DNA of 64,000 nucleotides from a virus. Where the stretch lies: IMG/VR virus record IMGVR_UViG_3300005080_000005; one strand, written 5' to 3'. Under the pieces are notes generated by a model. It searched no databases, was not told the origin of the DNA, and saw nothing but the letters and a program-made list of their open reading frames with translations. Shown here in pieces: positions 4,173 through 62,318 of the stretch (positions within the stretch are counted from its first letter, which is position 1; each line of letters opens with the position of its first letter). The position numbers were made by a program, and so were the translations under genes.

Positions 4173-4209
4173 CATAAACAGATAAACAACATTAACCAAG
4201 GGATCAACC

Positions 4210-4434: not shown

Positions 4435-4488
4435 TTAAATCTAAATTGATTATTTTACCTATCTTATTGAAATTAAAAGGATTCTATC

Positions 4489-4674: not shown

Positions 4675-4703
4675 GTTAAACAAGCATTAAAGGGGTGATT
4701 ATA

Positions 4704-4925: not shown

Positions 4926-4936
4926 GGAATATTAAA

Positions 4937-5185: not shown

Positions 5186-5418
5186 TTTTAGTCTGGATTC
5201 TACCTTTAAACTCTGGTAGAATCCTTTCTAAAGTTAAATTATGATAACAGGAGACAGATAAATCAGTTGACTTACTAGAAATGATAAAGATCACAAATGA
5301 AATACTGGGCAGGATTAAACAAGATCAATAAATAAAAGCTTGCACCAATAGAAAAGTTAGTTTATAATGTTTTCACCAAGTCGGGAATGGTTCCCGATAA
5401 AAACAAAGAGAAAATGTC

Positions 5419-5862: not shown

Positions 5863-5885
5863 TACGAAATAGATTAAGATAGTTG

Positions 5886-5923
5886 TTGATCTTCTGATTT
5901 GATGCGCTTATAATGAGCGCATC
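5886..5923 (+). promoter_or_regulatory. sigma70-like promoter with -10 inside an 8-bp perfect palindrome (operator-like)
   Basis: TTGATC - 17 nt - TATAAT; GATGCGCT tataatg AGCGCATC hairpin/palindrome spans the -10. Confidence 0.45.
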
Positions 5924-5956
5924 TTGTAGAGGAAAACACCAAGCAAAGGTAAAGTT

Positions 5957-6184
5957 ATGAAAAACTGGAATAAAACAAAAGAAGATATTAAAAACGAGTA
6001 TAATCTGAGCGTAAAACTGATGGCGACCCGCTTTTATTATGACAGACGGGATGACACTAATACCCTGTTGAATGATCTTTATTATAGAATTGAGAAAGAG
6101 GGTGGCAATCTGGATTTTGTCTCGGATGTCTCAGATTATATTGACAACTTGAAAGATTATGATAACAGACCATTTTATGATTAA
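5957..6184 (+). CDS. hypothetical protein
   Basis: ORF with AAAGGTAAAG SD. Confidence 0.45.
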   Translation: MKNWNKTKEDIKNEYNLSVKLMATRFYYDRRDDTNTLLNDLYYRIEKEGGNLDFVSDVSDYIDNLKDYDNRPFYD

Positions 6185-6288
6185 AGAAAACAAAAATAAA
6201 CCTTGCAATATAAAATCAGTTTGTTAGAATAGATTAAGAGGTTAGGGAATAATCCCTAACTTAAGACCAAACCAAAGGAATAAACACC

Positions 6289-6567
6289 ATGAAAAACCAA
6301 ATCAAAGCCGTTGTTAATGCAATCCTATCCCATAATGCTGGCGAGTATGTTTACTCTGATGTTAAACAATTGTTTACCGATGTTGCTAACAACTTTGATA
6401 ATGATTTTAATGTTGATTTTGATGGCCGTGAATATCGAGTTATCTCTAATGATGATATTCTTGATATCATGAAAGATGAGTTGTCAAGTGATACATATGT
6501 TTTGGGCTGTGGTTCTGACTGGTTTATGTCTGATGTGACAGGGATTCCCGTTGATGCAAGATGTTGA
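6289..6567 (+). CDS. acidic hypothetical protein
   Basis: ORF, D-rich; AAAGGAATAA SD. Confidence 0.5.
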   Translation: MKNQIKAVVNAILSHNAGEYVYSDVKQLFTDVANNFDNDFNVDFDGREYRVISNDDILDIMKDELSSDTYVLGCGSDWFMSDVTGIPVDARC

Positions 6568-6686
6568 CAGCTTTTGCTGAGGGTATTATTTCACACGATG
6601 GCGCAGGGCATCACTTTAGTGGTTATGATTTTAGTGAAACGGAAGCGGGGGATTATACTGTCTTTTGTGTCAACTAAGGGCTAGTG

Positions 6687-7025
6687 ATGGAGCATGACTC
6701 TTTAGACTGGGCGATTATAGTTATCTTGCTGTTGATTATGATCGCCCCCGTCGCCGCTGGTTTTCTGTTTATAATCTGGTTACTCAAAAAGGTTTATCAA
6801 ACTATGAATACAAACAACGAGCGCTATTGTTATCTAGCATACAAACACAACCAAACTGGACAAGTTTTTGATAGTGGTATTCAGCTTGAAACTGAAATTG
6901 ATCAAACAGAAAATAATGTCATTAGTTCCGGACATTGCATCTTGATCCGCTATAATACAAAAGAAGTCGAAAAGCTGAAAGGATGGATTCAAGCCTTTAG
7001 AATTGAAAACAATGTAATTTGTTGA
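6687..7025 (+). CDS. membrane protein
   Basis: N-terminal TM (WAIIVILLLIMIAPVAAGFLFIIWLL); ORF track starts at GTG 6684. Confidence 0.5.
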   Translation: MEHDSLDWAIIVILLLIMIAPVAAGFLFIIWLLKKVYQTMNTNNERYCYLAYKHNQTGQVFDSGIQLETEIDQTENNVISSGHCILIRYNTKEVEKLKGWIQAFRIENNVIC

Positions 7026-7091
7026 CTTAATAAAATCAAGAGAATCTAGTAGTTTGTTGGTTAACTTATAAATCAAGAGGAAATAAAAATT

Positions 7092-7238
7092 ATGTCTTTT
7101 ACCAATAGTAATGTAACCAAGATCCAAAAGAAGGCACGTTTCAACCATGAGGAAGCTTCGGAGCGACTCACAAAAGGGCGGAAATTGAACAAGACCCAAC
7201 GGAATAACAAGCGGGGTCTGTGGAACGATGAAGAATGA
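7092..7238 (+). CDS. small basic protein (48 aa)
   Basis: ATG after GAGGAAATAAAAATT; K/R-rich; not in ORF track (<60 aa). Confidence 0.35.
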   Translation: MSFTNSNVTKIQKKARFNHEEASERLTKGRKLNKTQRNNKRGLWNDEE

Positions 7239-7261
7239 AAATAAATTAAAATAATCTTATT

Positions 7262-7335
7262 GGAGGGCTTGCCAAGAGCAGCCCTCTTTTGCTATTATGT
7301 AATCAGAAGGGGAGGCAAGGGCCAAACCAACCCAC
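7262..7335 (+). promoter_or_regulatory. conserved hairpin/extended -10/leader cassette (copy a)
   Basis: GGGCTTGCCaagagcaGCCCTC hairpin, tGCTATTAT -10, leader ATCAGAAGGGGAGGCAAGGGCCAAACCA. Confidence 0.5.
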
Positions 7336-7355
7336 AATGCGATAAGGGGCTTGTT

Positions 7356-7505
7356 ATGATCGATATGACCGACATTGTTTTTGGCTGGAAGTCAAACTCC
7401 GGTAAATATTTTTTAAGGAAGAGGTATTGGATCGGTGTCGGATTTCAGTTTGTTGATTTTGAAGTTTCTTCAGACGTATACAATCTATGGAGTGATGTAA
7501 ACTAA
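7356..7505 (+). CDS. hypothetical small protein
   Basis: In frame with ORF track 7260-7505, but the 5' part is the regulatory cassette; ATG 7356 after AAGGGG. Confidence 0.45.
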   Translation: MIDMTDIVFGWKSNSGKYFLRKRYWIGVGFQFVDFEVSSDVYNLWSDVN

Positions 7506-7711
7506 TGTGGGTAACATATTATTTATCTTATGATCTGGGCTGTGTTCGCATCCCGTACCCTATGAAGAAGGGATGTAATCAGCACCCCGAAGATATTCTC
7601 CCCATATATAGATATGACTGGAAATTAATCCCTGAGTTTCCCGACAATATCCGCAGAGAGTATGCCCTAGGTTTCGGAGATTTTGTTGTGGTAGAAGAGG
7701 AAGTGATCTAA
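7505..7711 (+). CDS. hypothetical protein
   Basis: ORF, TAATG overlap with previous. Confidence 0.45.
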   Translation: MWVTYYLSYDLGCVRIPYPMKKGCNQHPEDILPIYRYDWKLIPEFPDNIRREYALGFGDFVVVEEEVI

Positions 7712-7723
7712 TAATTTAAAAAT

Positions 7724-7800
7724 TTTGCTTTAGGGGCTTGCATAGATGCGAGTCCCTTGCTATACTTATTTCATCAGGTGAGGCAAGGGGCCGAACCAAA
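7724..7800 (+). promoter_or_regulatory. conserved hairpin/extended -10/leader cassette (copy b)
   Basis: GGGGCTTGCatagatgcGAGTCCCTTGCTATACT ... ATCAGGTGAGGCAAGGGGCCGAACCAAAGGAG. Confidence 0.5.
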
Positions 7801-7812
7801 GGAGATGAGAAA

Positions 7813-8013
7813 ATGAAAAACTTGATCAAAAAAGCACAACAATTTGCCCATGATGTTAATGCCAACGGATGGGATTATTATCCTGATGAGATGGAAGGTT
7901 TCCCTGAAAACTTTGGAGTTTATAATTACGAGGATGGCATCTGGCTAGTAGATACTAAAGACGAAGCATGTATGTATAAAGCTGAAAAATTAGTATTACT
8001 CATTAAGCATTAA
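7813..8013 (+). CDS. hypothetical protein
   Basis: ATG 7813 directly after cassette SD AAAGGAGATGAGAAA. Confidence 0.5.
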   Translation: MKNLIKKAQQFAHDVNANGWDYYPDEMEGFPENFGVYNYEDGIWLVDTKDEACMYKAEKLVLLIKH

Positions 8014-8060
8014 TTTTTACTGAAAGGAATACATAAAATTATCTGATCTATTTTGTTTTA

Positions 8061-8110
8061 AGGGCTTGCCAAACGGCAAGCCCATTGATATACTTATTTC
8101 AAGAGGTATG
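8061..8110 (+). promoter_or_regulatory. cassette copy c (hairpin + TGATATACT, leader truncated)
   Basis: GGGCTTGCCaaacGGCAAGCCC perfect hairpin then TTGATATACT. Confidence 0.4.
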
Positions 8111-8266
8111 GCGATTTTTACTATAAAAACAATCAAATAAAATATATTGATCTTTAAGTTGTGACATCTTATAATGGTATTGTCGGTTCTACCGATGAAG
8201 CAAAGCTTCACAGGCTAAGCCTGCAAGTCACTTCTTAAGGAAAACACTAACAAAAGGATCAACAAA

Positions 8267-8401
8267 ATGATGGCAATGATTTTTGGATGTATGCTTGGCT
8301 TGGTTTTTGTTGCAACCATCAAGGGTGTTCAACATAACAATAAAGTGATGAAGGAGTCCGCCAAACTGCATGAGGAAAACATGAAACAAGCTTTAAGTTA
8401 A
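8267..8401 (+). CDS. small membrane peptide (44 aa)
   Basis: ATG after AAAAGGATCAACAAA; hydrophobic MIFGCMLGLVFVATI. Confidence 0.35.
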   Translation: MMAMIFGCMLGLVFVATIKGVQHNNKVMKESAKLHEENMKQALS

Positions 8402-8455
8402 TAATTTTTGGTTTGTCAATAGTTAATAAGGCAACAATATAGCAACCTAAAAGGA

Positions 8456-11279: not shown

Positions 11280-11667
11280 ATCTAAATTTTAGATGAGAAA
11301 AGTTATCATTTGCCTTTTGACAACCTATCACAAAATAATATAAAAAGCAAGCATGAAAATTTATGCAGCAAAAGTGACTAAAAACACACCTCATAGAATC
11401 GTCAATATTCAATAGTTCACAGGTAGCCAATACACTTGTATGGACTAGCCCTCCGAGCTAACAGAACGCAATGCATAGCGTTATACACCAAACGCCATCT
11501 AACCAAACCTAAAAAATTGCTACTTTGTAGGTAGTTAATGAGAACAGTTACCAACAAAGACAGACTGGAATATAAATAAATATAAAATAAAGGATGAGAC
11601 AAATAAAAATAAAATAACAGAATAGAATTATTACTTTTTATTTTCTTGAAGGGGCGAGCCTACATTT

Positions 11668-11709
11668 AAATATTATTTGGCGAGGCGGAACGGCTCGCCA
11701 AATAATATT
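11668..11709. terminator. large perfect palindrome, putative bidirectional terminator in convergence zone
   Basis: AATATTATTTGGCGAG gcggaacgg CTCGCCAAATAATATT, 16-bp perfect arms flanked by A/T runs on both sides. Confidence 0.5.
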
Positions 11710-12964
11710 ATATAACCAAGTCAATTTTTAATATTCAAATTATTCAGGGAATAATTATCATAAAATTGCTTTGTTTATATATTTCGGCTCTCTAAATATT
11801 AATCTTTTAATAGTTGTTCGTTAGCCTCAATTATATAAACAAAATTATCTGGCGATAATCTTGGTTATATAATATTATTTATCTTTGATAAATATGAGGG
11901 CTAACTCATACCCCTTTAAGAGTAATATTATACTTTCAGAAGATGAGATTTTCACACGAATAATTTATTATTTGTTTGACAAATCGCAATCTTCGATACT
12001 CACAGAACAATTGTTGCCTTAAACTTTCTTTTATGCTTGCATTCTTGCATTGCAAACAGCAATAAAAACAGTAATACAAAAGGCAATCATTATCATTTGA
12101 GGGCACAGCCCTCAATTGATAGTCAGACGAATTGAGAATCTAGATGTTAATGATTATCATTTAGCGCAAGGCGATTTAGACCAACTCCGAAGGCAACTAG
12201 GCTCAAGCAGTTTTCAATCCTATCTGTTATCTCTCACATCATCAAATCATTATAGTTGTAAGTCGCAACCTCTTTTATAGTAAGCTGTCTAGCTTATTTT
12301 ATCCAGTTTGTAAATCATTATTTTCTAGCTCCGAATCTCATTCGGTCTCAGTTTATAACTGCATATAACGTATCTTATGTTAAATCAAGTTATCTTGAAA
12401 CATTGTATCTTGTTCGGCTCAATTGAATCTAATTATTAATGGTTATCATTGTCATTTGTATCAATATTGTTAGTCTCTTTTGAATCTGTTTATGTTGTCA
12501 TCTGTCAGGGTAAAGCATCTTGCAAAAGTCCAGTTAATTTTAAAAATAAATATAGTTTAAATTGTAGTTTAATAATTAAATAATGTTTTAATGCGATTGT
12601 TAATAGCAATGATAATAATTCGTATTCAGGGCGACTCTGACAAGCAAGAATCATGCCATTGTTGATATAGTTTCACCTGATATTTGAGAATTATAGTGAT
12701 AATGAGAATGAGTCGTATTTGGGTTGTCTAACCCCTTGGAGGTAGACCTTTAATATTGAATTAACATACAATTTCCAACCAAGCTATGTAGACTTATAAC
12801 AGTCGTTAAATCATTAGCAGCACTGGATAAACCTGTACGGATATTTTCTAGATGTAGAAATCTATAGGAGGGGCTATACATTAAACTTGTCTGGCGGGGG
12901 TTGGGGTATATTCCAAGCAAAAGAAAAGACGACACTCTTTCGAGGTCGCCTCATATTGGTTATA

Positions 12965-13297
12965 TTACTTATTCAATTGTTCCTTCAGTTTCTTATTCTC
13001 TTTGACTATCTTGTCAATCTTATATTTACTCCAACCTAACTCTTCATATTTATCCCTGAGTGTTTTAATTTCGTCTCTGTCAATCTCTCGTAATGTTTGT
13101 TCAGGATAAATGATTAGTTTACCGCTATCCCAATCAAAACCTAAGTTAATATCTTTGATATTTGTACTAGGTGTTCCACCAATTAAACCAACTTTGTGCG
13201 AAGCAATAACAACTTGTATCTCTTCTAGATTTAATCGTTGTCTAACAGCCTGTTGTTCCATTTGTTCTACTAGCTCTTTCAGTTCCGATAGTGTCAT
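12965..13297 (-). CDS. hypothetical protein
   Basis: ORF, last gene of the minus-strand block. Confidence 0.5.
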   Translation of the reverse strand: MTLSELKELVEQMEQQAVRQRLNLEEIQVVIASHKVGLIGGTPSTNIKDINLGFDWDSGKLIIYPEQTLREIDRDEIKTLRDKYEELGWSKYKIDKIVKENKKLKEQLNK

Positions 13298-13307
13298 TTT
13301 AGCTCCT

Positions 13308-13637
13308 TTATTTCAGTGTACCGTTCTTGTTGTATTTGTCAGTCAACACTAAATAGTTATAGCTGGTTCTTCTCATGTTACCTAAACTTAATGTCCACAA
13401 TTTATTAATCTGAATCAATACACCTTTCTTAATTAGATATTGTAAATCTGGGTCTCTGCTGACAATCAACTGGTGCCTCCGATTAACAATAAAACCATAA
13501 GGTATGTGCCAACTCATTTCCTTTGTTTGTGTTTGAAGCCACAATAGCAATTGTGTTCTCCGTTCTTTGCCAAAAGGCATGTTCTGTATCTCTCTAAACT
13601 TTTTACTACTGTTTTGGATAAACTGCTCTCTGTCCAT
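13308..13637 (-). CDS. hypothetical protein
   Basis: ORF. Confidence 0.5.
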   Translation of the reverse strand: MDREQFIQNSSKKFREIQNMPFGKERRTQLLLWLQTQTKEMSWHIPYGFIVNRRHQLIVSRDPDLQYLIKKGVLIQINKLWTLSLGNMRRTSYNYLVLTDKYNKNGTLK

Positions 13638-13782
13638 TTATACTCTCCTTTTATTCATAAGACTAAACCTCAACAAGGTCTAACCAAGTCGAGGCCAATA
13701 TGATTTTACTGAAACGTCGGTTTCTGTCAATATGCATATTATAATGTTAATGTCGTGTGAATGATAACTAGTGTGAGGTCGC

Positions 13783-14349
13783 CTATTTCCAACTAAATAT
13801 TGATTTAAAGACGCCACTAATAAAACCGTCTTTGTGTTCAACTACGATACTGTTGTGCTGCTTCCGAATTACTATCTCATACTCTTTAATTTCATCTAGG
13901 ACTTCTGACATACTACCTTGTCTTGCAGTGATAATTGGTTGTGGGAAGTAATAAAAGTTTGCAGATATCACCAACATAATTTCTACTTTGTTGTTGTAAT
14001 CTTTTCCGATAATACCAGCTTCCACTATTGTTGCCATTGTTTGTGTTTGAAGTTTAAGTTGCAACTCATTAACTTCTCTAATGCAGTCAATAATTTCTTG
14101 CTGTGTCAGCCTATTTGGTCTGTCATAGTAATCGTACATATTATTAATTTTCTTGACAACAAGGATATCTGAAATTTCAAAGTCAATATTGTGTTCAATT
14201 GCATACATAACATCTTTGATGTCTTTGTCATTTATCTTGTCTTGTTTTGATGCAAGACCGTACAAATCTGCCACGTTACCTGTGTCAATCTTCAATTCAT
14301 TATAAACTTTGACAAACTTCTCTTTATCTAATTCATATTTGACTTTCAT
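13783..14349 (-). CDS. hypothetical protein
   Basis: ORF 188 aa. Confidence 0.5.
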   Translation of the reverse strand: MKVKYELDKEKFVKVYNELKIDTGNVADLYGLASKQDKINDKDIKDVMYAIEHNIDFEISDILVVKKINNMYDYYDRPNRLTQQEIIDCIREVNELQLKLQTQTMATIVEAGIIGKDYNNKVEIMLVISANFYYFPQPIITARQGSMSEVLDEIKEYEIVIRKQHNSIVVEHKDGFISGVFKSIFSWK

Positions 14350-14591
14350 TATTTCTCCTTAATAAGTTGTTTTGCACTTGATATAATATCTGTATCATAA
14401 AAGCTGTGTGGATTATACCCAGATTCAACCATACCTATCAACATTTGTATTGTATCTTTGTATTTAAATTCATCCTCATCTGTTTTATCTTTTACATCAA
14501 GCAAATCACCATACAATTCTGCTGAGTCAACTTCTAGTTCACCCTTGTTTAGTTTATTACCATATTTTGTTACCAAATCCTCTATGTTCAT
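14349..14591 (-). CDS. hypothetical protein
   Basis: ORF. Confidence 0.45.
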   Translation of the reverse strand: MNIEDLVTKYGNKLNKGELEVDSAELYGDLLDVKDKTDEDEFKYKDTIQMLIGMVESGYNPHSFYDTDIISSAKQLIKEK

Positions 14592-14824
14592 TTATCTATC
14601 CTCTTAATATTCAAGAATTCTTCCCACTCAACTAGTGCTTTAATATATTTGTACCTTCTTTCAAAATTGTTTTGGTATGGAGTAACCCAGTCAAACCAAT
14701 ATTTAGCATACATAATACGAATAAACCTTGGCTGTAAGAATAATGGTAGGAGCCACCATAGTTTTAAGAATGTGTTGTCATACCTCATTATACCTCCTGT
14801 GTTGCTAATCGGACTATAGCCCAT
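14588..14824 (-). CDS. hypothetical protein
   Basis: ORF. Confidence 0.45.
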   Translation of the reverse strand: MGYSPISNTGGIMRYDNTFLKLWWLLPLFLQPRFIRIMYAKYWFDWVTPYQNNFERRYKYIKALVEWEEFLNIKRIDK

Positions 14825-15159
14825 CTCAATTCACTTTCAACTGTTATTACCAACTCTGATACGTACTTTCTGTCTTGCGGGTCAGGTATTGATGGTGTAA
14901 CCTTAATGGTAACAGTGTCAAACAATTCCTTATGTGTTTTATTATTGGCAAATTCTTCTAGGAATCCAACTAGAAAACTTGAAGTAATAAGTTGTTCTTT
15001 ATTAATCCACAGTTCAATGTATTTTGGTAGTGTTGTTTTAAAATGGTTTCTGCGCTCCCATTCTGCCTTTCCGTGCTCTTTTCCTGAAAACAATAATGTA
15101 TTTGGTACGCCGCTGTTAATGCCATTATACATAATGTAAATTACTTCACCTTCTTTCAT
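14788..15159 (-). CDS. hypothetical protein
   Basis: ORF; true start may be internal Met (MYNGINSG). Confidence 0.45.
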   Translation of the reverse strand: MKEGEVIYIMYNGINSGVPNTLLFSGKEHGKAEWERRNHFKTTLPKYIELWINKEQLITSSFLVGFLEEFANNKTHKELFDTVTIKVTPSIPDPQDRKYVSELVITVESELRWAIVRLATQEV

Positions 15160-15731
15160 TTATATTTCTCCGTCATAATTTTAACTTTATCAATATCTTC
15201 TTGCAAATAAAAATTGTAAATCGGAATATTCTGTTTCATTGCCAATTGAACTGCTGTATTTGTGCCGCCTTTAACACCTGTGATAACACCTTGTTTGTTC
15301 TTTGTTGTTGGTGCATAACAGAATAATACACAACTTGGTGTATTCAAGTCAAGCCCTAGAACTTGATAAACATTTCGTGTATGTAGAGCTTTTGCTCCAC
15401 GACTTAGACGATTCCAAGCTGGATGAATAGTTGATGCAATTTCTACAGCTTCATTATAGTTTGGCAGGGTTGGTGTAACAAGGTGTGTACTGTCTTCACG
15501 AATATCCGAGAAGCCTTTCCAAGGAAGGTATGCTTCAAAACTAACATGGTCTGAAACACCATTGATAATCTCATAATGATTAAAACCTTGTTCAAAAGCA
15601 CTATCAGCACCTGCTGCACTCCCAGAACGACCAGTATAACCTCGTCCAGCCAACCAATATGCAACTTGTTCAATAAATTTTAGAATGTGTTGTGGTGTCT
15701 CTCGACTACCCACCCCTGTATAATATTTCAA
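15156..15731 (-). CDS. DprA/Smf-like Rossmann-fold (SLOG superfamily) protein
   Basis: YTGVGSRETP ... GRSGSAAGADSAFEQG resembles the DprA Rossmann motifs GSR / SGxAxGxDxxAHxG. Confidence 0.4.
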   Translation of the reverse strand: MKYYTGVGSRETPQHILKFIEQVAYWLAGRGYTGRSGSAAGADSAFEQGFNHYEIINGVSDHVSFEAYLPWKGFSDIREDSTHLVTPTLPNYNEAVEIASTIHPAWNRLSRGAKALHTRNVYQVLGLDLNTPSCVLFCYAPTTKNKQGVITGVKGGTNTAVQLAMKQNIPIYNFYLQEDIDKVKIMTEKYK

Positions 15732-16075
15732 TTGTGGTTCCCCTTCTTTTGACCATCAGCTTTGTCCCATTTTTCAAACACACCTTTCCAAAACTCTTCA
15801 TTCTTTGTATCAAGTTTCCAATAACCTTTAGAACTTAATAGTATCCAAGGATATTTAGGGTGTTTACGCCAAGTTTAGGGTGGATCTATGATGTTATCAA
15901 AGAAATCAATAACTCTAATTAAACAATCAGTTATTTTCATCAATTCTCTCCAAACACCTACCTCCACATTTGATTATGCGTCGTTCTGATTCAGACCAAT
16001 ATGTTTGTGTACACCATTTTACATTGTGCTTATATGCGTGTCTGCATTTATAACAAATATAAATATATTTCATAA

Positions 16076-16456
16076 TTATTCCCCACTTGTAAATTTACCG
16101 TAAGGGCACGGAAGGTTCCCGTTGTAGTGATATTTCCAACAAACCAAACACTTACTGTAATTACTCCGGCATTGTGGAATAGGCGCAGGTATTGGATTGT
16201 GTGTTATACTAATCTTGTGTTGTTTCCAAGACAACTGACTAATCTGTTCTGCAAAAGAACCAACAACAATATCATTTAGTGCAAAAGTTCGTTCACACTA
16301 TTTATCTAGGTCATATACAGTCGTTAACCATTGGTTTTCTGGGTGAAATTCTGTTGCACCAAAATATAGTGACATAGGGATAACATTTCGTGTTGATTTG
16401 ATTACTTTGTAATTAATATACTCAAATTGTGTTTGTTGTCCAAAGATTATGTTCAT
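16076..16456 (-). pseudogene. Cys-rich protein gene interrupted by in-frame TAG (52 aa + stop + 73 aa)
   Basis: ATG 16456; TAG at complement 16300-16298; continues in frame to TAA 16076 with plausible Zn-ribbon-like C-terminus CRSNYSKCLVCWKYHYNGNLPCPYGKF. Confidence 0.45.
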
Positions 16457-16465
16457 CTTCTCTCC

Positions 16466-17017
16466 TTATTCAAACAATTTACAATATTCAATGTTATTCT
16501 TGAGGTCGCGCTCAAGTTGTTCTAGTTGTTTTTGAAGATTCTTGTATGTTATGGTGTCTTCAACTTTTCCTGTCATCTTGTCAGTAACAACAATTACCCA
16601 CAGTTCACCATAATTGTGCCAACCTTCATAACTGTCCCACTCATAAACATAACAGTTACCGTGTTCTTCATCCCAACCAAATTGGTCAACATCTGATTCT
16701 GGGCATTCGTCTTTATGCTTTATTTTACAGAAATCAACGTTTAAATACTTTCCTGATTCTACTGCTTTGTCGTATTCAGATTTGAACTCCAAAGTCAACT
16801 CTACAAGACTATCCAAATCTAAACTATAGTTATCCCAAAGACCTTTATGATAAAGAATGTAGGGCTTATTTTCATAAGTTTCTTGGTGTTTAACCATATC
16901 TTCAAGTCTTGTCTTCATGTGTTTGATTTGTTCCGTGCATTCAACAATACAATGCAAATAGTATGAATCCGTGGATGATTGGTTCATTAATGTTTCATAT
17001 ACTTTATCTTTATTCAT
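16466..17017 (-). CDS. hypothetical protein
   Basis: ORF 183 aa. Confidence 0.5.
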   Translation of the reverse strand: MNKDKVYETLMNQSSTDSYYLHCIVECTEQIKHMKTRLEDMVKHQETYENKPYILYHKGLWDNYSLDLDSLVELTLEFKSEYDKAVESGKYLNVDFCKIKHKDECPESDVDQFGWDEEHGNCYVYEWDSYEGWHNYGELWVIVVTDKMTGKVEDTITYKNLQKQLEQLERDLKNNIEYCKLFE

Positions 17018-17374
17018 TTAAACTTTACTCTCCGTTTTAAGATAGTTGATGGTGTTTTCCAACATAGTAATGTAGTTATTGTGCGTGGTATTGTGGTACA
17101 CTTTATAGGCTTCAATAATATTTTCTAGCATATCAACACAAATTTCACCAACTGTTTCTGTTTCAGTTGCTTTGAACATTGCATAAAATGCTTCTCGCAT
17201 ATTAACATTATCATCTTCGTTATTATTTGGGCTTGAATCCCAAGCATCTATCATCTTCTTTGTTAATTCGTCAGGTAATACCTTGTAATTAACATATTTA
17301 TACCAAATCATGTAGCTCTCCCTATTCGTCAACCAACACAAACCATTGCTTATGGAAGAACAGTTCCCTTCCAC
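17018..17374 (-). CDS. hypothetical protein
   Basis: ORF. Confidence 0.5.
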   Translation of the reverse strand: MEGNCSSISNGLCWLTNRESYMIWYKYVNYKVLPDELTKKMIDAWDSSPNNNEDDNVNMREAFYAMFKATETETVGEICVDMLENIIEAYKVYHNTTHNNYITMLENTINYLKTESKV

Positions 17375-17543
17375 GAGAGTCCAGTACTACCAGATTCTGA
17401 CCTACTTTGTCAACACAAATATACTCACACCCTTCTAGTACCTCAGGCCTGTTTGGCTGACCAATAGCCAATACTGTACATGGAAAAGTTATATCCTCAA
17501 ATTCACAATAAACATCTACTTTCTTCTTAGGTTTTCGTGCCAT
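17322..17543 (-). CDS. hypothetical protein
   Basis: ORF. Confidence 0.45.
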   Translation of the reverse strand: MARKPKKKVDVYCEFEDITFPCTVLAIGQPNRPEVLEGCEYICVDKVGQNLVVLDSRGRELFFHKQWFVLVDE

Positions 17544-17613
17544 TAATTATTCTTCCTCTTCAAGATCTTCATTATAAAATTGCTCTTCATTATCATACCA
17601 ACTATCCCGTACA

Positions 17614-17802
17614 TCATCCCATGCACCGCACACATTCATTTGGTTCATAGGCAGCACAGAAACAATAGTCTTCAACTTCACCTGTTCCGTGGCAGATATG
17701 GCAATCCTCTTCTGTTACAACTATTGTGTCATCGTCAAGGTACTCTACTTCTTTTCCATTTTCACAACATGTGTTAAAACAAGGTCTCACTCTATTTCCC
17801 AT
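17614..17802 (-). CDS. small Cys-rich zinc-finger protein
   Basis: CFNTCC...CHICHGTG...CFCAAYEPNECVRC. Confidence 0.45.
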   Translation of the reverse strand: MGNRVRPCFNTCCENGKEVEYLDDDTIVVTEEDCHICHGTGEVEDYCFCAAYEPNECVRCMG

Positions 17803-17852
17803 TTTGTCTTAATTATGTTTGTATACTACAACATAAATATTAAAGTGTCAAT

Positions 17853-17888
17853 ACAAAATTCAAATAAGGGTGCCCCTAAGGGCACCTA
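17853..17888 (-). terminator. rho-independent terminator (minus strand)
   Basis: GGTGCCC ttag GGGCACC + TTATTTGAATTTT on the minus strand. Confidence 0.55.
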
Positions 17889-17899
17889 GATATATCACA

Positions 17900-18898
17900 T
17901 CATTGTTTTATTTCTTCTAGACCACAACTATCCAGAAATTTATTGAGAACGAACAGTGAATCATTTTCAAAACACTCTGTTGACCAATCTACATAATGTT
18001 GGAAGTTTCTTTCTCGTAACTCGTTATGTAGTTCTTGTTCAAAATCATAAATCTCTTGATGTGTTGCTGTGAATATTCTGAGTTTGTGAATCTTTTTGAT
18101 TTTAGATATAGACTTTAAAGCATCAACTCTTTTATCAACAAGAAAAGACCTTCCAACTTTAATGAATTTACCATTGAAGTTCAAGATGTACAAGAAATCA
18201 GTTTCATCTTTTCTTTCGGGATAGTATCCATTACCATTTCCATCTTCCCTTAATCTTCTAATGGTTTCATCTTTAGCACAACCCCGACAACGTGTTCCTT
18301 TGTTTACAAAATTACCATATCTAACATTCTGTTTTCCATGAATTTTGCAGATGTACTCAAAACGAGAAGTGTTGTTTTTATATCCACCAACAAAACCAAC
18401 AACATCATAGCTCATTTCTTTACAAATATCAATACATTTTTGCAATGCTTCTTGTTCTGTTGGCCTATATACACCAGCACACTTTGAACAACCTTTGCCA
18501 CTATTAATAATATCATTAATACTTGCAGTCCACTTATGCCCATCTTTCAAACATTCAAGGTTTAGTTTGGTGTTTTGATTTTTAAATCCTTCAACAAAAC
18601 CATGAACAATAAACCTGTCTTTTGATGCTCTACGGGCTAATATTAAATATTGAAAGTCCCTCCATCTTACATTTTTCCCACAACCACAAGGTTTGATTTC
18701 TTTAACCAAACTACTTTTGACACTAACAAAATATCCATCATGGAATAATTCAGGATCTTTGGAACATTCCGTACAGGTAACTTTAAAAGTGGTATGCTTC
18801 GATTTCTCAATAATACCAATAACTTCTAGTTTTCCATCTTTACTTTTCCAACCTATGAAATCTTCAGCTTTTTGTTGTTTCTTTTTATTTTCAGTCAT
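17900..18898 (-). CDS. Zn-ribbon repeats + T5orf172 (GIY-YIG-like) putative homing endonuclease, paralog 2 (intact)
   Basis: 332 aa; three CxxC...CGC/CxKC zinc-ribbon-like repeats then FLYILNFNGKFIKVGRSF T5orf172/MUG113-like motif. Confidence 0.7.
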   Translation of the reverse strand: MTENKKKQQKAEDFIGWKSKDGKLEVIGIIEKSKHTTFKVTCTECSKDPELFHDGYFVSVKSSLVKEIKPCGCGKNVRWRDFQYLILARRASKDRFIVHGFVEGFKNQNTKLNLECLKDGHKWTASINDIINSGKGCSKCAGVYRPTEQEALQKCIDICKEMSYDVVGFVGGYKNNTSRFEYICKIHGKQNVRYGNFVNKGTRCRGCAKDETIRRLREDGNGNGYYPERKDETDFLYILNFNGKFIKVGRSFLVDKRVDALKSISKIKKIHKLRIFTATHQEIYDFEQELHNELRERNFQHYVDWSTECFENDSLFVLNKFLDSCGLEEIKQ

Positions 18899-18986
18899 TT
18901 AGACTCCAATCCAATACTATCAATATACATATGTAATATACCCATGCTAAAATAGCACAAGGAGCAAACTGCTCCTTGTGCTATAT

Positions 18987-19865
18987 TTAATTTGTAATCT
19001 TTGATTTTATTTCTTTGATAATCTTAGAAGAAAGTTGTTCTCTGGTATTGTTCAGTGAATATTGTATATCCATATCATTACAGAGGCTTCTAAACTCTTC
19101 TGTACTAAATCCTGAGTCAACAACAAAGTAAGCTGGTGTAAAATCTCCATTGATATCATATTCAATATTGTCAATTTTAAAAATATATTCTCTTGCATCC
19201 TCATTAAACAACACTACAATATCATCTGTCCAAGAATAAATACGAATCAAACTGTCATCGTACTCCTTAACACCAATCGTGCATGTTTCTTTATTTACGA
19301 CAGCTTCACTGGATTCTTGCTCCCCGAAAAACATGTTAATCAGCTCGTCTTTTGAAAGGTTCTCTGCAACTTCTCGTGTTATAGGTTCAGATTCTTCTTC
19401 TAGTTGAACGACAGTGATTTCACCACCAGAATAAACATCCCGTTTCATTGCAATTTTGACTGCATCTTCTGCTGATGCACCAGCATCCATGGCTGCAAGG
19501 GCGAATACACTACCTGAACCAATTGATGCTTGAACATCGTGCCCAAGATTAAGAGCGACATTACCATCATACATCAAAACTTGTTTGTCTGGAGTCAAAA
19601 CCAACGCCGTAAACTCCTCGTCGTCCTGTAGAACAGGCGGAATCAAATCAACAAGATCTCCAACTTCTTGATTAACAATTGTGTAATCTGTGTGTTTCTG
19701 CAACCATTGGGCAAAGGTGCTGATAGACCGTGCTCGTCCTGCCCCACCCATCAAGTGGTTGTTAACCCAAAAGACTTTTACCATATCATCTTTGATTACG
19801 GTGCTACCAAGTGAACAACGACCGTCACCTACCATAATACCATCTTTTACTGCGATTGTAGTCAA
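18987..19865 (-). CDS. HslV/proteasome-beta-like Ntn peptidase domain with ~130-aa C-terminal extension
   Basis: MTTIAVKDGIMVGDGRCSLGSTVIK (Thr2 nucleophile) and ASIGSGSVFALAA match HslV TTIVSV..GDGQ.TLG and GSGG.YALAAA. Confidence 0.55.
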   Translation of the reverse strand: MTTIAVKDGIMVGDGRCSLGSTVIKDDMVKVFWVNNHLMGGAGRARSISTFAQWLQKHTDYTIVNQEVGDLVDLIPPVLQDDEEFTALVLTPDKQVLMYDGNVALNLGHDVQASIGSGSVFALAAMDAGASAEDAVKIAMKRDVYSGGEITVVQLEEESEPITREVAENLSKDELINMFFGEQESSEAVVNKETCTIGVKEYDDSLIRIYSWTDDIVVLFNEDAREYIFKIDNIEYDINGDFTPAYFVVDSGFSTEEFRSLCNDMDIQYSLNNTREQLSSKIIKEIKSKITN

Positions 19866-57081: not shown

Positions 57082-57338
57082 AACTTCAAATTAAAACAAA
57101 ATTTGAAAAGAGTAGCAAAATTACTAAACTTGCAACATTATCAACAGAAACAAGATGGGGTGCAAAAGTTACCAGATACAGTTATCTTGAAGATGTTACT
57201 TGGACTGTCTATGCTGGGCAATTAGTAATGAAATCAGGAAAATCTTTCCTGTTTAAAGACGCTTTACATGAGGCAACTACCATGTTAGAGTCATGTATGA
57301 ACGACCCATTGTTTAAATATTTAGGAGAAAACAAATGA
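57078..57338 (+). CDS. hypothetical protein
   Basis: ORF overlapping previous stop. Confidence 0.5.
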   Translation: MKLQIKTKFEKSSKITKLATLSTETRWGAKVTRYSYLEDVTWTVYAGQLVMKSGKSFLFKDALHEATTMLESCMNDPLFKYLGENK

Positions 57339-57544
57339 ATAACCTCAACAATTTTGAACTACACGAAGAAGCAATGAACCTATCTGTTGTACAAACTTCA
57401 TATAAACTTGCAAAAATGTACTTGCAAGAAAAACAGGAACTAGAAGAACTGAAAGAAAAGTATGAAAACTTGAATCAGATATTTGAAGATTACCTTGCTG
57501 CCCATAAAGTTATCCAAGCCGAGTTGGAGAGACTTCAATTGTAA
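57335..57544 (+). CDS. coiled-coil hypothetical protein
   Basis: ORF. Confidence 0.5.
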   Translation: MNNLNNFELHEEAMNLSVVQTSYKLAKMYLQEKQELEELKEKYENLNQIFEDYLAAHKVIQAELERLQL

Positions 57545-57767
57545 CATAGTATTGATACGACCAAATCTCAACCTGAATTGGGGTGTTAACTGAGATTAAA
57601 CATTATCAGACTCTGAATATCAATTTTAAAGGCTACCAGAAGCTCCCTACTGGATAGTTTGAGAATAGGAGTATGTTGGTAGCCTGAACTACCGAGAATT
57701 GATTATAGAGCTTTCTATGAATGTTTTAAGGTTTGATAGGTTATTTGAGATATTTAAATAAAATCTA

Positions 57768-57796
57768 TTGACTTTTTATTTATTACATTATATACT
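57768..57796 (+). promoter_or_regulatory. sigma70-like promoter
   Basis: TTGACT - 17 nt - TATACT, 31 nt upstream of TAGGAGACTAAAATG. Confidence 0.55.
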
Positions 57797-57827
57797 TAAT
57801 ACGTAACATAGTAAATAGGAGACTAAA

Positions 57828-58094
57828 ATGGAAATGTACAAAGAAAATGACATGAGCCTTGGTGAATTTATTCGTGAGGTCTATATGTCGGAAGAAGGTG
57901 GTAAAATGACTATGCAACAAATTGCAGATGCTTGTGGTGTAACTCAGGCTACGATTAGTCGTCTTATCAACAACAAATCTGACTTGACTATTGAGATGGC
58001 ATTCAAGCTTGAAAAAGGTCTTGGCCGTAGTGCTCAGTCTTGGATGAACTTGTGGGTTAACTATAAAATTTGGGAGTACAAACACAAAAGTTGA
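57828..58094 (+). CDS. XRE/HigA-like helix-turn-helix DNA-binding protein
   Basis: MTMQQIADACGVTQATISRLINNKSDLTIEMAFKLEKGLGRSAQSWMNLWVNY follows HigA antitoxin-type HTH consensus. Confidence 0.6.
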   Translation: MEMYKENDMSLGEFIREVYMSEEGGKMTMQQIADACGVTQATISRLINNKSDLTIEMAFKLEKGLGRSAQSWMNLWVNYKIWEYKHKS

Positions 58095-58202
58095 AACTAT
58101 GGTTATTACGCTCTAGCCCTTGTGTACCAAGGCTTCCAGACAGATAAAAATTTCAAGAGTGGATGATAATGGTTATGGTTAGTAGTTAGTTGGTTAATTG
58201 GA

Positions 58203-59513
58203 GTGTGTATGGTTGAGAGAGAGTATCGAGATTATTTATTTAGGAGTAATTATAAACCTAAATATTTAAATAATATAAAAGATAAACTTAGAGATTTATA
58301 TATAAAAGAATATAACGTTAAGTCTTTCAGTCAAATAACTGATGGTTTTTATTGTGTGTTGTACAATATTGTTCGTGCATACAATTATGGTTGTGTTGGT
58401 TTATATGTTTCTAGGGATTACAATTTTTATAAGACAGATGTGATATTTAATGGTAAAGTTATGAATTTTCGTATTGGTTACGAATCTATAACTAAAACAT
58501 TAGATTTTCTTGAAAAATATAATTTCATAGAATCAAGTAAGGGATTTTACATATCCGATAAACATAAGAAAACTGGGCATATCACATTCAAACCAGCACT
58601 TATCGAATTGATTGAAGAGAATGTGGACAAGTCTAAACTAAAGTTTAAATTATTAGAAAACGTAGTAGTATTAAGAGATGTCAAGGGTGAAAACTTACCT
58701 TTTCGCAGAACAAAGGAGATTCGTAGCATGATTGATTTGATTAACTCTTATAATGCCTTTATGGAAGGTGTAGAAGTGACTTTTCAAGGTAAGAGGTTGA
58801 ATACACAAGTACATCGCTCTTTCTCCCGCAGTTCCTTCGATAAAGGTGGGAGGTACTATAGTAGCGGTCGTGGTATTCAACAGTTAAGTAAACAAGATAG
58901 AGAGTACGTATTAATTGATGGTGAATTTACGATAGAGATGGATTTCAAAGCACTCCACCCTTCTATTCTTTATGAGAAAGAAGGTATCGTACTCGATGAA
59001 AACTTTGATGTTTATGGCGGAGAAGGTGCGGCATATACTTTCCAAGTAGTTCCAGATATTGTGCTGAAACGTAGGGAAACAGATCGTAAGTATAATCCTG
59101 TTCGTAACTTCCTGAAGAAAACACTGTTGGTGATGATTAACGGTAGGTCAAGTGGACAGGTTGCTGGTAAAATGCAACAACTGTTACTAGAAGATAGACA
59201 GAAGCCAGAAGATGAACAAGATTTTGCAGGATTGGTTGACGTAGACCCATACAATGCAATTGAGTTTCTTAGTGATCACAATGAAATGATTAGTAAATAC
59301 TTCCATAGTGATGCTGGTATTGACTTGCAAAGACTAGACTCTGATATTATTAGTATGGTGATTGAATATTGTGTTCAAAGGGAGATCCCTATTTTGACTG
59401 TACATGATAGTGTAATTGTTCCACAAAGTCATGTTGGCGAGGTGTTGTCAGTAATGAAAGCATCTTATAAGAGTGTAGTTGGTAGTGATTTTAATTGTAG
59501 GATAGAGGTATGA
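58203..59513 (+). CDS. miniature family-A (Pol I / T7-RNAP-like) polymerase-domain protein
   Basis: Ordered motifs with Pol I-like spacing: T/DxxGR (FDKGGRYYSSGRGIQQLS vs Pol I TATGRLSSTDPNLQNIP), motif A (YVLIDGEFTIEMDFKALHPS vs YVIVSADYSQIELRIMAHLS), motif B (RNFLKKTLLVMINGRS = RxxxKx7[Y->N]G), motif C (ILTVHDSVIV, cf. T7 RNAP ALIHDSFGT). Confidence 0.55.
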   Translation: MCMVEREYRDYLFRSNYKPKYLNNIKDKLRDLYIKEYNVKSFSQITDGFYCVLYNIVRAYNYGCVGLYVSRDYNFYKTDVIFNGKVMNFRIGYESITKTLDFLEKYNFIESSKGFYISDKHKKTGHITFKPALIELIEENVDKSKLKFKLLENVVVLRDVKGENLPFRRTKEIRSMIDLINSYNAFMEGVEVTFQGKRLNTQVHRSFSRSSFDKGGRYYSSGRGIQQLSKQDREYVLIDGEFTIEMDFKALHPSILYEKEGIVLDENFDVYGGEGAAYTFQVVPDIVLKRRETDRKYNPVRNFLKKTLLVMINGRSSGQVAGKMQQLLLEDRQKPEDEQDFAGLVDVDPYNAIEFLSDHNEMISKYFHSDAGIDLQRLDSDIISMVIEYCVQREIPILTVHDSVIVPQSHVGEVLSVMKASYKSVVGSDFNCRIEV

Positions 59514-59516
59514 ATT

Positions 59517-59945
59517 ATGTCAATATCATGTTATTCTAAAAATTGTGTAAGAGTAAAACATCTTCCTTCAGGACACGAAGTTATTTGCAATAGTTCAAGG
59601 TACATGCACAAAAACAAGGACTTAGGTGTAAAAACAATCAGAGCTAGGCTTCATGCTGATGAAATTGGGTTAGAACGCCCTTCTATTTGTGAAGATACAG
59701 AAGGAACTATTTGCCCAATCTGTGAGAAAGGGATTCTAAAACAAGTTCATGAATACTTGCATTATGAGTACAAAAATGGTAACTTCTATGAAAATCCACT
59801 AAGTAATGAGTACGAAGTTCTTAGTATTTACTTAGTTTGTGAAGGTGGAGAAGGTGCTTGTGGTAGTGAACAAATTGATGGTTATTGTCTGAGTTATAAT
59901 AAAGAGACAATGGAAATGCTTTATAAAATGAAGGAAAAATCGTGA
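59517..59945 (+). CDS. Cys-rich (multi zinc-ribbon) protein
   Basis: CYSKNC...C...CPICEKG...CEGGEGACGS...C. Confidence 0.5.
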   Translation: MSISCYSKNCVRVKHLPSGHEVICNSSRYMHKNKDLGVKTIRARLHADEIGLERPSICEDTEGTICPICEKGILKQVHEYLHYEYKNGNFYENPLSNEYEVLSIYLVCEGGEGACGSEQIDGYCLSYNKETMEMLYKMKEKS

Positions 59946-60409
59946 GGTGTTGGACAGGAGAACAAATAACTCAACTTGAACCAAACTATGTTTTTGTCTT
60001 CGGTTCTAATCCTGAAGGAAGGCATGGAGCTGGTGCAGCAAAGGCAGCATTGAAGTTTGGTGCTAAGTATGGCATTGGCCGTGGATTACAAGGACAAACT
60101 TATGCTCTTGTGACAAAGAACCTTAAAGAATGTTTTGTTGAGAAACTTGCAAATGGCACTACTAAAACGCACCATAAAGTAGGCTATCGTAGTATCAGTA
60201 AAGAAGATTTGATTGAAAATATCAAAGAGTTTTATGAGTGTGCTGAACAAAATAAACATCTTAAATTCTTTGTGGTGTACAAAGCTGATAGCAAAAACCT
60301 TAACGGATATTCTTCAAAAGAGCTGTATGAAATGTTGACAACACATAAGATCCCTGATAATGTGTACCTACATTCAAGTTTTAGAGTATTTGATGAGGAA
60401 ATAAAATGA
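59942..60409 (+). CDS. Rossmann-like hypothetical protein (Gly-rich FVFGSNPEGRHGAGAAKAA motif)
   Basis: ORF 155 aa; Gly-rich loop suggests nucleotide binding; family not resolved from sequence. Confidence 0.45.
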   Translation: MRCWTGEQITQLEPNYVFVFGSNPEGRHGAGAAKAALKFGAKYGIGRGLQGQTYALVTKNLKECFVEKLANGTTKTHHKVGYRSISKEDLIENIKEFYECAEQNKHLKFFVVYKADSKNLNGYSSKELYEMLTTHKIPDNVYLHSSFRVFDEEIK

Positions 60410-60645
60410 ATCGCAGCAAAGGTAATTATATCCAAGGAGTAAAATATGCCGAAAGCTTACTGGAAAAATCTTTAGAAGCAGGAGAAGACCCTTCTGAAAG
60501 ATTTCGTCAAATACTTCGTACAGAGAGTGAACCTTCATATTACTATGACGGAAAAGATTATTGTGATGGATTTTATGACTATGTTCATTATTATCTTGAT
60601 AACAAAGAATTGATTGTTAATCATTTTATAGGGGAATATAAATGA
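60406..60645 (+). CDS. hypothetical protein
   Basis: ORF. Confidence 0.45.
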   Translation: MNRSKGNYIQGVKYAESLLEKSLEAGEDPSERFRQILRTESEPSYYYDGKDYCDGFYDYVHYYLDNKELIVNHFIGEYK

Positions 60646-62054: not shown

Positions 62055-62137
62055 GTTGGATTCCGTTAGTGGCGATACGACTGGTTTTGTAATCCAGCAG
62101 GGAAACCTCATCGTGAGTTCGAGTCTCACATCCAACA
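62055..62137 (+). tRNA. tRNA-like gene, type II (long variable arm), non-canonical anticodon arm (anticodon UGU if 7-nt loop)
   Basis: Acceptor GTTGGAT/ATCCAAC, D-stem CGT/ACG with GG loop, T-arm GTGAG-TTCGAGT-CTCAC, 15-nt variable arm with AGG/CCT hairpin; anticodon stem only 4 bp with a U-U closing pair; no encoded CCA. Confidence 0.4.
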
Positions 62138-62159
62138 CTAAGTATTTTAAAGATTTACA

Positions 62160-62234
62160 GGGCCTATGGCAGTCTGCGAATGCAGCCAGCTCATAACTGG
62201 TTCAAGGATGGTTGGATTCCATCTAGGCCCACCA
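62160..62234 (+). tRNA. tRNA-Met (CAU)
   Basis: Acceptor GGGCCTA/TAGGCCC, anticodon arm GCCAG-CTCATAA-CTGGT, T-arm GATGG-TTGGATT-CCATC, discriminator A + encoded CCA. Confidence 0.7.
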
Positions 62235-62243
62235 AATTAACTT

Positions 62244-62318
62244 GCAGGTATGATGTAATGGATAGCATATCTTTCTTCTAAAAAGATTGTCAGCGTTCAA
62301 ATCGCTGTACCTGTGCCA
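62244..62318 (+). tRNA. tRNA-Arg (UCU)
   Basis: Acceptor GCAGGTA/TACCTGT, D-arm ATGT-AATGGATA-GCAT, anticodon arm TCTTT-CTTCTAA-AAAGA, T-arm CAGCG-TTCAAAT-CGCTG, G + encoded CCA. Confidence 0.8.

Follow-up and report, generated by a model that had tools for sequence, protein, structure and literature searches.

The window analysed here is a 64,000-nucleotide stretch of viral DNA (IMG/VR record IMGVR_UViG_3300005080_000005), in which an uninterrupted plus-strand open reading frame (ORF) at 58203-59513 encodes a polymerase-like protein of putative TV-Pol type and is preceded by a short gene for a helix-turn-helix (HTH) protein. We describe these two genes as a unit that is exchanged between phages, assign the larger product to a predicted fold and to a family, and tentatively propose for it the role of a site-specific primase or replication initiator. 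The phage itself is closely related to Aeromonas phage 4L372D of the genus Plateaulakevirus, with 91.6% DNA identity across the 3 kb compared, and is not the T5-like phage that an earlier note made from the sequence alone had taken it for. That note also gave the protein a length of 436 aa, which is the number of codons counted from the GTG at 58203; however, since the ATG at 58209 is preceded 5 nt upstream by GGAG, and the 98% identical protein 4L372D_150 of phage 4L372D ('hypothetical protein') is 434 aa long, the gene probably starts at this ATG and yields a product of 434 aa. The protein matched PHROG 4756 (function unknown) with an E value of 2e-84, and no paralogues of the gene were found within the window.

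The first gene of the module (57828-58094, plus strand) encodes an 88-aa XRE/HigA-like HTH protein, recognised by PF01381 (E 1e-11) and by phrog_1381 (E 6e-17; annotated as 'plasmid antitoxin with HTH domain'). It lies directly upstream of the polymerase-like gene, as the earlier note had said, and its product is probably the regulator of the two-gene module. A consensus scan of the interval 57300-58203 identified a sole sigma-70-like site on the plus strand, the promoter candidate TTGACT-17-TATACT at 57768-57796 (10/12 matches), which falls inside the swapped module (left edge at ~57748). As the same scan found no sigma-70-like site in the 109-nt spacer between the two genes (58095-58202), and the nearest plus-strand candidate precedes the HTH gene, the two genes probably share one promoter, rather than the polymerase-like gene having its own, as had been claimed. 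By sequence comparison, the spacer region up to the probable start codon (58095-58208, plus strand) contains the 14-mer CTCTAGCCCTTGTG (58111-58124), a small hairpin, and TGGTTA repeats (58169-58200). The exact 14-mer recurs in the equivalent spacer of Rheinheimera phage Barba19A (8836-8849 of locus L005), the proteins of the two phages being only 22% identical, and GGTTA/GTTATTGG repeats occur in both spacers, that of the Aeromonas phage window and that of the Rheinheimera Barba phages. In a search for an upstream cis motif common to the family, 12 lineages shared no more k-mers than controls did.

The limits of the module are apparent from a comparison with phage 2L372D, in which DNA similarity to the window ends at 57,747 and returns at 59,510, with flanks that are 82-94% identical. 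In place of the module, 2L372D has a 63-aa gene that is unrelated, together with an allele of the polymerase-like gene that is 450 aa long and only 27% identical; the unit replaced spans precisely the promoter candidate, the HTH gene with its downstream spacer, and the polymerase-like gene (~57748-59513). Among isolates of the Vibrio phage ICP1, a block of 2.4-2.6 kb is cleanly replaced between 98% identical flanks (L093 10427-13042 versus L230 1720-4095). In ICP1_2006_E this block consists of ORF98-101, including the 555-aa polymerase-like homologue ORF100 (gp102), and in ICP1 2017_Dha_X of a 147-aa gene, a 97-aa HTH_3 gene and a 434-aa polymerase-like allele. Because the HTH protein of 2017_Dha_X, encoded directly upstream of the polymerase-like gene, is homologous to that of the window (33% identity, E 4e-13), the pairing of a HigA-like HTH protein with a TV-Pol is conserved across phage genera. 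In the Aeromonas phages as in ICP1, the HTH gene and the polymerase gene form one module, which is exchanged between phages that are otherwise near-identical.

Two consequences follow for the function of the module. Phage 4L372D has genes for a helicase, a primase/helicase and a DNA polymerase at other places in its genome, so the polymerase-like enzyme would be an accessory to a complete replisome. Furthermore, alleles with different N-terminal domains are exchangeable, and therefore either the cis target travels within the module, or the target is not sequence-specific or not needed. Exchange of the whole module thus fits a pair of initiator and origin better than it fits a genome-wide transcriptase.

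We then consider what the larger protein is. Searches against Pfam, which the earlier note had proposed as a check by way of PF00476 and PF00940, returned no significant polymerase match (PF00476 none at E<=1, PF00940 none). NCBIfam models likewise gave no polymerase match, and among the homologues listed none carried a precomputed Pfam domain. Neither phmmer nor sequence-profile searches of the PDB found a polymerase, the profile search returning only PadR-type winged helix-turn-helix (wHTH) proteins. When the family was aligned with hhalign to T7 RNA polymerase (RNAP), motif C alone was aligned, HDSF on HDSF 811-814, in the correct position and at a non-significant E value of 0.095; the corresponding alignment to T7 DNA polymerase (DNAP) was not significant.

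An AlphaFold2 model built on the family alignment had a mean pLDDT of 91.5 and a pTM of 0.87, and all 50 of the 50 PDB matches listed by Foldseek were family-A DNA polymerases, with E values down to 1e-6. Over all fold searches, the matches were restricted to the palm-fingers-thumb of family-A DNA polymerases (PolA) and single-subunit RNAPs, the catalytic core fold being shared with T7-like single-subunit RNAPs. Among viral structure models, one homologue from a Rheinheimera phage bears the UniProt name 'DNA polymerase'. In order along the model, a hairpin of strands 203-207 and 216-220 (with R205 and R217) is followed by strand 241-248 ending in D247, by helices in 251-392 that hold R301xxxK305...N313 and D379, by a second hairpin of strands 398-400 and 403-407 with H401-D402-S403 at the turn, and by helix 408-426. 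Judged from the model, this order of elements fits an RRM-type palm with inserted helical fingers carrying R301xxxK305. The polymerase-like core occupies approximately residues 166-436, and Pfam and NCBIfam recognised no other domain in the protein; 34 aa remain after D402 and there is no nuclease domain, both as first described. It is the predicted structure, and not sequence similarity, that supports a minimal, nuclease-less fold of the PolA/single-subunit RNAP type, in agreement with the earlier note.

The N-terminal domain (approximately aa 1-165; 58203-58697, plus strand) is a helical hairpin followed by a PadR-like wHTH, as seen both in the model and in the comparison of the family profile with the PDB, in which the N-terminal 160 residues matched the PadR-type regulators 1xma (E 0.0025), 9qbc and 5u8j. 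In an alignment of 118 diverse relatives, to which all conservation figures given here refer, mean identity was 17% in the N-terminal domain versus 27.5% in the core. Such faster evolution is as expected for a specificity domain, and from its sequence relationships the winged helix is presumed to be the DNA-recognition part of the protein.

Nine residues are invariant in this alignment (N184, G216, R217, R233, D247, R301, K305, D402, and S403), and a further set is conserved at 97-99% (R205, F207, G215, E245, H252, Y271, N313, G372, L375, D379, and H401, with R205 and E245 at 99%, H252 at 98%, and D379 and H401 at 97%), followed by S380 at 89% and L309 at 86%. The four motif blocks reported from the single sequence are all present, in the order given and near-invariant across the relatives; as far as the alignment can tell, they form the conserved heart of a large family, far beyond chance. 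All are encoded on the plus strand. The first, the G215-G216-R217 hairpin (58845-58853), lies on the beta-hairpin strands 203-207/216-220 of the model, with R217 as the invariant Arg of the 'TxxGR'/TV-Pol hairpin. The family reads GGR[FY]Y here versus RGRVY in T7 RNAP (R423-G-R425-V-Y), and the Pol I hairpin is TGRLS. In motif A (E245-M-D247-F-K-A-L-H252; 58935-58958), D247 ends strand 241-248, and helix 251-259 comes next. The catalytic Asp of this motif had been placed at D239, but D239 (in L-I-D) is replaced by N or another residue in many homologues, whereas D247 (in E-M-D) is invariant. D247 is accordingly the predicted first, and D402 the predicted second, catalytic (metal-binding) Asp.

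Motif B, or the O-helix (R301-x3-K305-x3-L309-x3-N313; 59103-59141), forms helix 299-313 in the model and has the same spacing, as read from sequence, as R627/K631/M635/Y639 of T7 RNAP and R518/K522/Y526/Y530 of T7 DNAP. The replacement of its Tyr by Asn, singled out in the earlier note, is present in this protein, but it is a trait of the whole family (Asn in 99% of the relatives) and not a mutation specific to this gene. The conserved Asp of the fingers, in D379-S380 (59337-59342), lies in helix 372-392 and is the counterpart of the conserved aspartate in the TV-Pol fingers (PMC2579912). Motif C (H401-D402-S403; 59403-59411) forms the turn between strands 398-400 and 403-407, and its RNAP-like character stands: the family has HDS(F), with the consensus HDSF, as does T7 RNAP at 811-814, versus HDE in T7 DNAP. 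The family further has L309 at K+4 of motif B (M635 in T7 RNAP, Y526 in T7 DNAP), N313 at K+8 (Y639 and Y530, respectively) and H252 at D+5 of motif A, where T7 RNAP has Gly (DGSCSG) and T7 DNAP has Glu, E480 (DASGLELR). In place of the DNA-polymerase-type residues (Glu at D+5, Phe/Tyr and Tyr in motif B, and HDE) there are H252, L309, N313 and HDS. Because the N313 and H252 positions match neither T7 enzyme, the sugar specificity of the polymerase-like enzyme is unpredictable from its motifs.

The earlier note knew of no described family with such an architecture; the TV-Pol family, however, was described in 2008 (Iyer, Abhiman & Aravind 2008, Biol Direct 3:39; PMC2579912). TV-Pols were presented there as uncharacterised proteins of 400-600 aa that match no database domain and never have a nuclease domain; their core joins a thumb to a beta-hairpin that holds an invariant Arg, to an RRM palm bearing two Asp, and to HTH-type fingers marked by RxxxK and a conserved Asp. 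Some stand alone, and others have an additional N-terminal domain or a D5 helicase; their genes lie in phages and in bacterial elements that also encode a gamma-delta resolvase, a lambda-type integrase or insertion sequence (IS) transposases, and the proteins were predicted to be primase-polymerases that prime the replication of mobile-element DNA (PMC2579912). The window protein shares with them its size (434-436 aa), the presence of an additional N-terminal domain, a minimal PolA/T7-RNAP-like core free of nuclease domains, a hairpin with the invariant R217 (strands 203-207 and 216-220) and the 99% conserved R205, a modelled palm with the two invariant residues D247 and D402, and helical fingers (251-392) placed between the palm strands and carrying the invariant R301xxxK305 as well as D379 (97%). 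The host taxa overlap with the 2008 list (Rhodobacteraceae, Rhizobiales, Desulfobacterales, and phages), and bacterial relatives have the same neighbourhoods with resolvase, integrase or IS transposase, which are not seen for the phage copies.

For a more direct comparison, we turned to the Microcystis phage Ma-LMM01, named as a carrier of a TV-Pol element (PMC2579912). Its gp030 adjoins two IS605-type transposase genes, and from these neighbours we infer that gp030 is the TV-Pol of the 2008 paper. The alignment of the window family with the gp030 family by hhalign had a probability of 82.7% and an E value of 9.6e-6 over 164 collinear columns that span the hairpin Arg, the motif A Asp, K...N, LQ..DS, and HD; with HMMER the link between the two families was marginal. 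On the strength of the described features and this profile link, we assign the window protein to the TV-Pols with fair, though not full, confidence.

A word-indexed search returned 26 homologues, whereas a full profile search retrieved 11,104 cluster representatives at E<=1e-3 and 5,409 at E<=1e-30, from proteobacteria of marine and soil origin and from no fewer than 290 sequenced phages. They fall outside every Pfam and NCBIfam model, and nearly all records consulted are 'hypothetical', so that recognition as TV-Pol-type polymerases would give a functional label to thousands of genes. By tblastn, the family was present in 290 phage records (Vibrio phages including ICP1, Rheinheimera Barba phages, and phages of Aeromonas, Pseudoalteromonas, and Shewanella); among the matches listed, all annotated ones were 'hypothetical', and some phages had 2-3 copies. 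A genome scan located 275 loci, chiefly in Rhodobacteraceae, Rhizobiales, Desulfobacterales, SAR116 and other proteobacteria, and the bacterial members in the profile search, mostly from marine metagenomes, were all labelled 'hypothetical' or had no name.

Members of the family reside in integrative elements. One bacterial relative (P0021) adjoins a resolvase and an integrase, a second (P0025) has an integrase and an excisionase-type HTH gene nearby, a third (P0026) adjoins an IS transposase, and a further locus (L038) holds an integrase. No resolvase, integrase or IS transposase neighbours were seen for the phage copies, and no linkage to a D5-like helicase was seen for the family. Defence-like cargo, for example DUF6119 and an AAA-CSD protein, occurs in the bacterial neighbourhoods, which are otherwise variable; PADLOC defence models matched neither the polymerase-like protein nor its relatives. 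In Rhodobacteraceae the family gene also occurs on short contigs of 1.6-4.3 kb (L067, L033, L035, L075, and L076), some of high coverage (4,311 bp at a coverage of 181), which hints at multi-copy or extrachromosomal elements. A plasmid replicon was considered and rejected: only 2 plasmid matches were obtained, both to large replicons, and the small high-coverage bacterial contigs were not circular (no terminal overlap) and had variable cargo, with no resolvase-containing 4-kb element among them.

The position of the gene in phage genomes provides a further line of evidence. In the window it lies 3-4 kb into a rightward unit, past a strand switch and a cumulative GC-skew minimum at ~54-55 kb, and the homologues in Barba19A, ICP1 and an uncultured phage are also located just past divergent junctions. 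The homologue gp102/ORF100 of ICP1_2006_E has the record coordinates 58,951-60,618. For this strain at 8 min, Barth et al. (PMC7145576) reported that the read depth of bidirectional theta replication peaks 'near the 60 kb position'. A literature search on ICP1 gp100/gp102/ORF100, including the supplements of the ICP1 transcriptome paper, found nothing on this protein. In PLE-like satellites of other vibrios, a protein with a 'DNA Pol I domain' is reported to stand in place of the PLE RepA initiator (PMC9410903).

Taken together, we consider that the polymerase-like protein may be a site-specific primase or replication initiator, a reading to which we assign a probability of roughly 45%. Its winged-helix domain would bring the enzyme to a specific phage DNA site, where the TV-Pol core, if catalytically active, would make a short primer de novo, of RNA or DNA. 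The phage replisome (helicase, DnaG-type primase/helicase, and DNA polymerase) would then extend the primer, and the module would act as an origin-specific initiator/primase in early theta replication. The HTH protein would repress the module promoter, as in plasmid cop-rep operons. The RNAP-like HDS, the GGR-Y hairpin and the aliphatic motif B residue suggest that such an initiator possibly uses ribonucleotides. The more specific proposal that the wHTH-TV-Pol protein is the missing theta-replication initiator of ICP1-like and Plateaulake-type phages, combining origin recognition and synthesis of the first primer in one polypeptide, is doubtful.

Several observations weigh against an initiator function. 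The agreement between the ICP1 homologue and the reported theta-replication peak is a coincidence at low resolution, and in the strain used a CRISPR-cas deletion may displace the coordinates by a few kb (PMC7145576). A strand switch is no proof of an origin, since GC skew in phages follows the direction of transcription. We found no convincing iterons and, within or close to the module, no obvious AT-rich unwinding element, and CTCTAGCCCTTGTG was not found beside other genes of the family, being confined to the two lineages mentioned above. Some alleles have altered motifs, with G-K for G-R and a YDE motif C in the ICP1 2017 allele and an HDA motif C in ORF100. Finally, the sequence link to named TV-Pols is moderate (the 82.7% of the hhalign comparison), membership otherwise being by description, and according to the authors of the study of CCPol, the TV-Pol relative encoded on SCCmec, no other TV-Pol has been biochemically characterised (PMC7581432).

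Among the alternatives, the one that survives best, though we think it unlikely, is that the polymerase works for the spread or copy-out of the two-gene cassette in which it is encoded, by a replicative or homing-like route, and not the replication of the phage. This is close to the 'replicative transposons' that Iyer et al. themselves proposed for TV-Pols (PMC2579912), and it would account for the sporadic, allelic distribution among close relatives, the sharp boundaries at the ends of the module, the several phages with 2-3 copies, and the bacterial relatives in integrative islands beside an integrase, resolvase or transposase. The phage modules, however, have no gene for a recombinase, transposase or nuclease, are not flanked by terminal repeats, and always sit at the same locus in related phages instead of being scattered. 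A selfish cassette also overlaps in part with an origin-specific initiator, as a swappable module of origin and initiator would behave selfishly as well.

That the protein is a miniature single-subunit RNAP transcribing a set of phage genes, with the winged helix replacing the promoter-recognition elements of T7 RNAP, appears improbable. GGR[FY]Y beside RGRVY, HDS[F] beside HDSF and the aliphatic L309 at the position of M635 do bring the family closer to T7 RNAP than to T7 DNAP, but Asn takes the position of Tyr639. Moreover, alleles that are 25-30% identical and have different N-terminal domains are exchanged, so that every cognate promoter would have to change simultaneously; the family resides mainly in small integrative elements with unrelated cargo, and sigma-70-like promoters are annotated across the ICP1 region.

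A part in counter-defence or in conflicts between elements, for instance through decoy nucleic acid or interference with satellites or host defence, is in our view distinctly improbable. It would agree with the rapid turnover of alleles at one locus of ICP1, a phage known for its arms races with PLE satellites, with the HigA-like, antitoxin-type HTH partner, and with the defence-like cargo (DUF6119 and the AAA-CSD protein) adjoining bacterial relatives; no toxin partner is present, however, the neighbours of the bacterial relatives vary with no conserved system apparent, and the PADLOC models gave no match. Lastly, the idea, raised in the earlier note, that the enzyme tails tRNA or other RNA as a template-independent or RNA-directed nucleotidyltransferase is highly improbable: the three tRNA genes (62055-62318), said in the earlier note to be next to the gene, are only loosely near it, lying 2.5 kb downstream and outside the swapped module, and a related phage carries a tRNA-His guanylyltransferase and an HNH endonuclease gene noted as similar to tRNA nucleotidyltransferase, but the gene context offers no support, no tRNA genes accompany the homologues in bacteria or in other phages, and the conserved template/primer-contacting elements and the DNA-binding wHTH point to DNA-templated synthesis.

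The sequences around the module are conserved in their own right. To its left, the plus-strand interval 57545-57747 is a conserved non-coding stretch with a stable stem-loop (arms at ~57631-57640 and 57678-57687; fold z-score -3.05) and no Rfam match. The interval 57335-57747 is 81.6% identical to phage 2L372D, including a 42-nt indel (an insertion in 2L372D), and can be aligned up to the module edge. To its right, a 142-aa ORF (59517-59945, plus strand) begins 4 nt past the stop codon of the polymerase-like gene. It had a below-threshold match to PF00472 (second half of the RF-1/peptidyl-tRNA-hydrolase domain, E 8.5e-5; phrog_20323); the GGQ part of the PF00472 domain is absent, and CxxC pairs suggest a zinc ribbon. 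The DNA of this ORF lies beyond the swapped module and is kept at 90% in phage 2L372D.

An Rfam scan of 54-64 kb detected the three tRNAs and no other family. A sub-threshold match to 'Plastid-ycf2 5UTR RNA' at 62160-62232 on the minus strand (44.6 bits versus a gathering score of 65.7) lies opposite tRNA-Met and is almost certainly a by-product of its sequence. Near its ends, phage 4L372D repeats long stretches of small genes in inverted orientation (272-8436 versus 11627-19619, and 135455-138662), among them the 'DNA binding protein' genes gp007 and gp040 and Sano_07-like genes, which points to large duplications, inverted or terminal, or else to an artefact of assembly.

Should priming at a site chosen by the winged helix prove true, the Pol I/T7 RNAP lineage would have no simpler known member capable of it, and the protein would represent a third structural class of replication-initiating primase beside DnaG and the archaeo-eukaryotic primases. 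It would bear on the divergence of RNA and DNA polymerases within the Pol I/T7 RNAP fold, and it would mean that initiator, repressor and cis site are carried on a 1.8-kb module exchanged by phages. It would also explain the start of theta replication in ICP1-type phages, and for ICP1 an established genetic system allows gp102 (ORF100) to be tested directly. The 270-residue core, if active, may be of interest to enzyme engineers.

Placed among known systems, the window protein probably belongs to a kind of enzyme that had already been described; what is new here is the conserved HTH partner, the precise swapping of the module and the coincidence with the theta origin of ICP1. The two-gene module with a HigA-like HTH, its swapping from phage to phage and the near-origin position are absent from the 2008 description, in which, moreover, the N-terminal domain is 'all-helical', in contrast to the winged helix with beta strands found here. 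The closest system with biochemistry is CCPol of SCCmec, a distant TV-Pol that extends primers and, together with its OB-fold partner MP, primes de novo (PMC7581432; PMC10061031 for this and the PolA-SSB primases). Like the window protein, it is a nuclease-less family-A-type polymerase on a mobile element, and it was counted as a TV-Pol by Iyer et al. Yet CCPol is annotated as A-family, retains exonuclease remnants and has the dNTP-selective residues E710 and F762, whereas the window family, which Pfam does not detect, has H252 and L309 at these positions. In the CCPol-MP system, DNA binding resides in a separate OB-fold protein and the genes are helicase-linked, while the window protein has a fused wHTH and no adjacent helicase.

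The T7-like and mitochondrial single-subunit RNAPs share with the window protein the HDS(F) motif C, the RGRVY-like hairpin and an N-terminal DNA-recognition region before the core. T7 RNAP and mitochondrial RNAP prime DNA replication at origins. They differ from it, however, in being about twice the size (883 aa in T7), in having a specificity loop and an N-terminal domain that refolds, and in the Tyr639 that is Asn in the window family, and no significant sequence similarity was detected (the hhalign E value of 0.095). Two further systems are analogues in function. ColE2 Rep combines origin recognition and primer synthesis in one protein, with a catalytic fold unrelated to that of the window protein. 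In pRN1, one protein recognises the origin and makes the primer, and its gene follows that of a small repressor in a 'replication operon' (PMC4234260). This pair, orf56/ORF904, recalls the two-gene module of the window, although ORF904 has the archaeo-eukaryotic primase-type prim-pol fold, which is unrelated to the fold of the window protein, and the analogy is one of function only.

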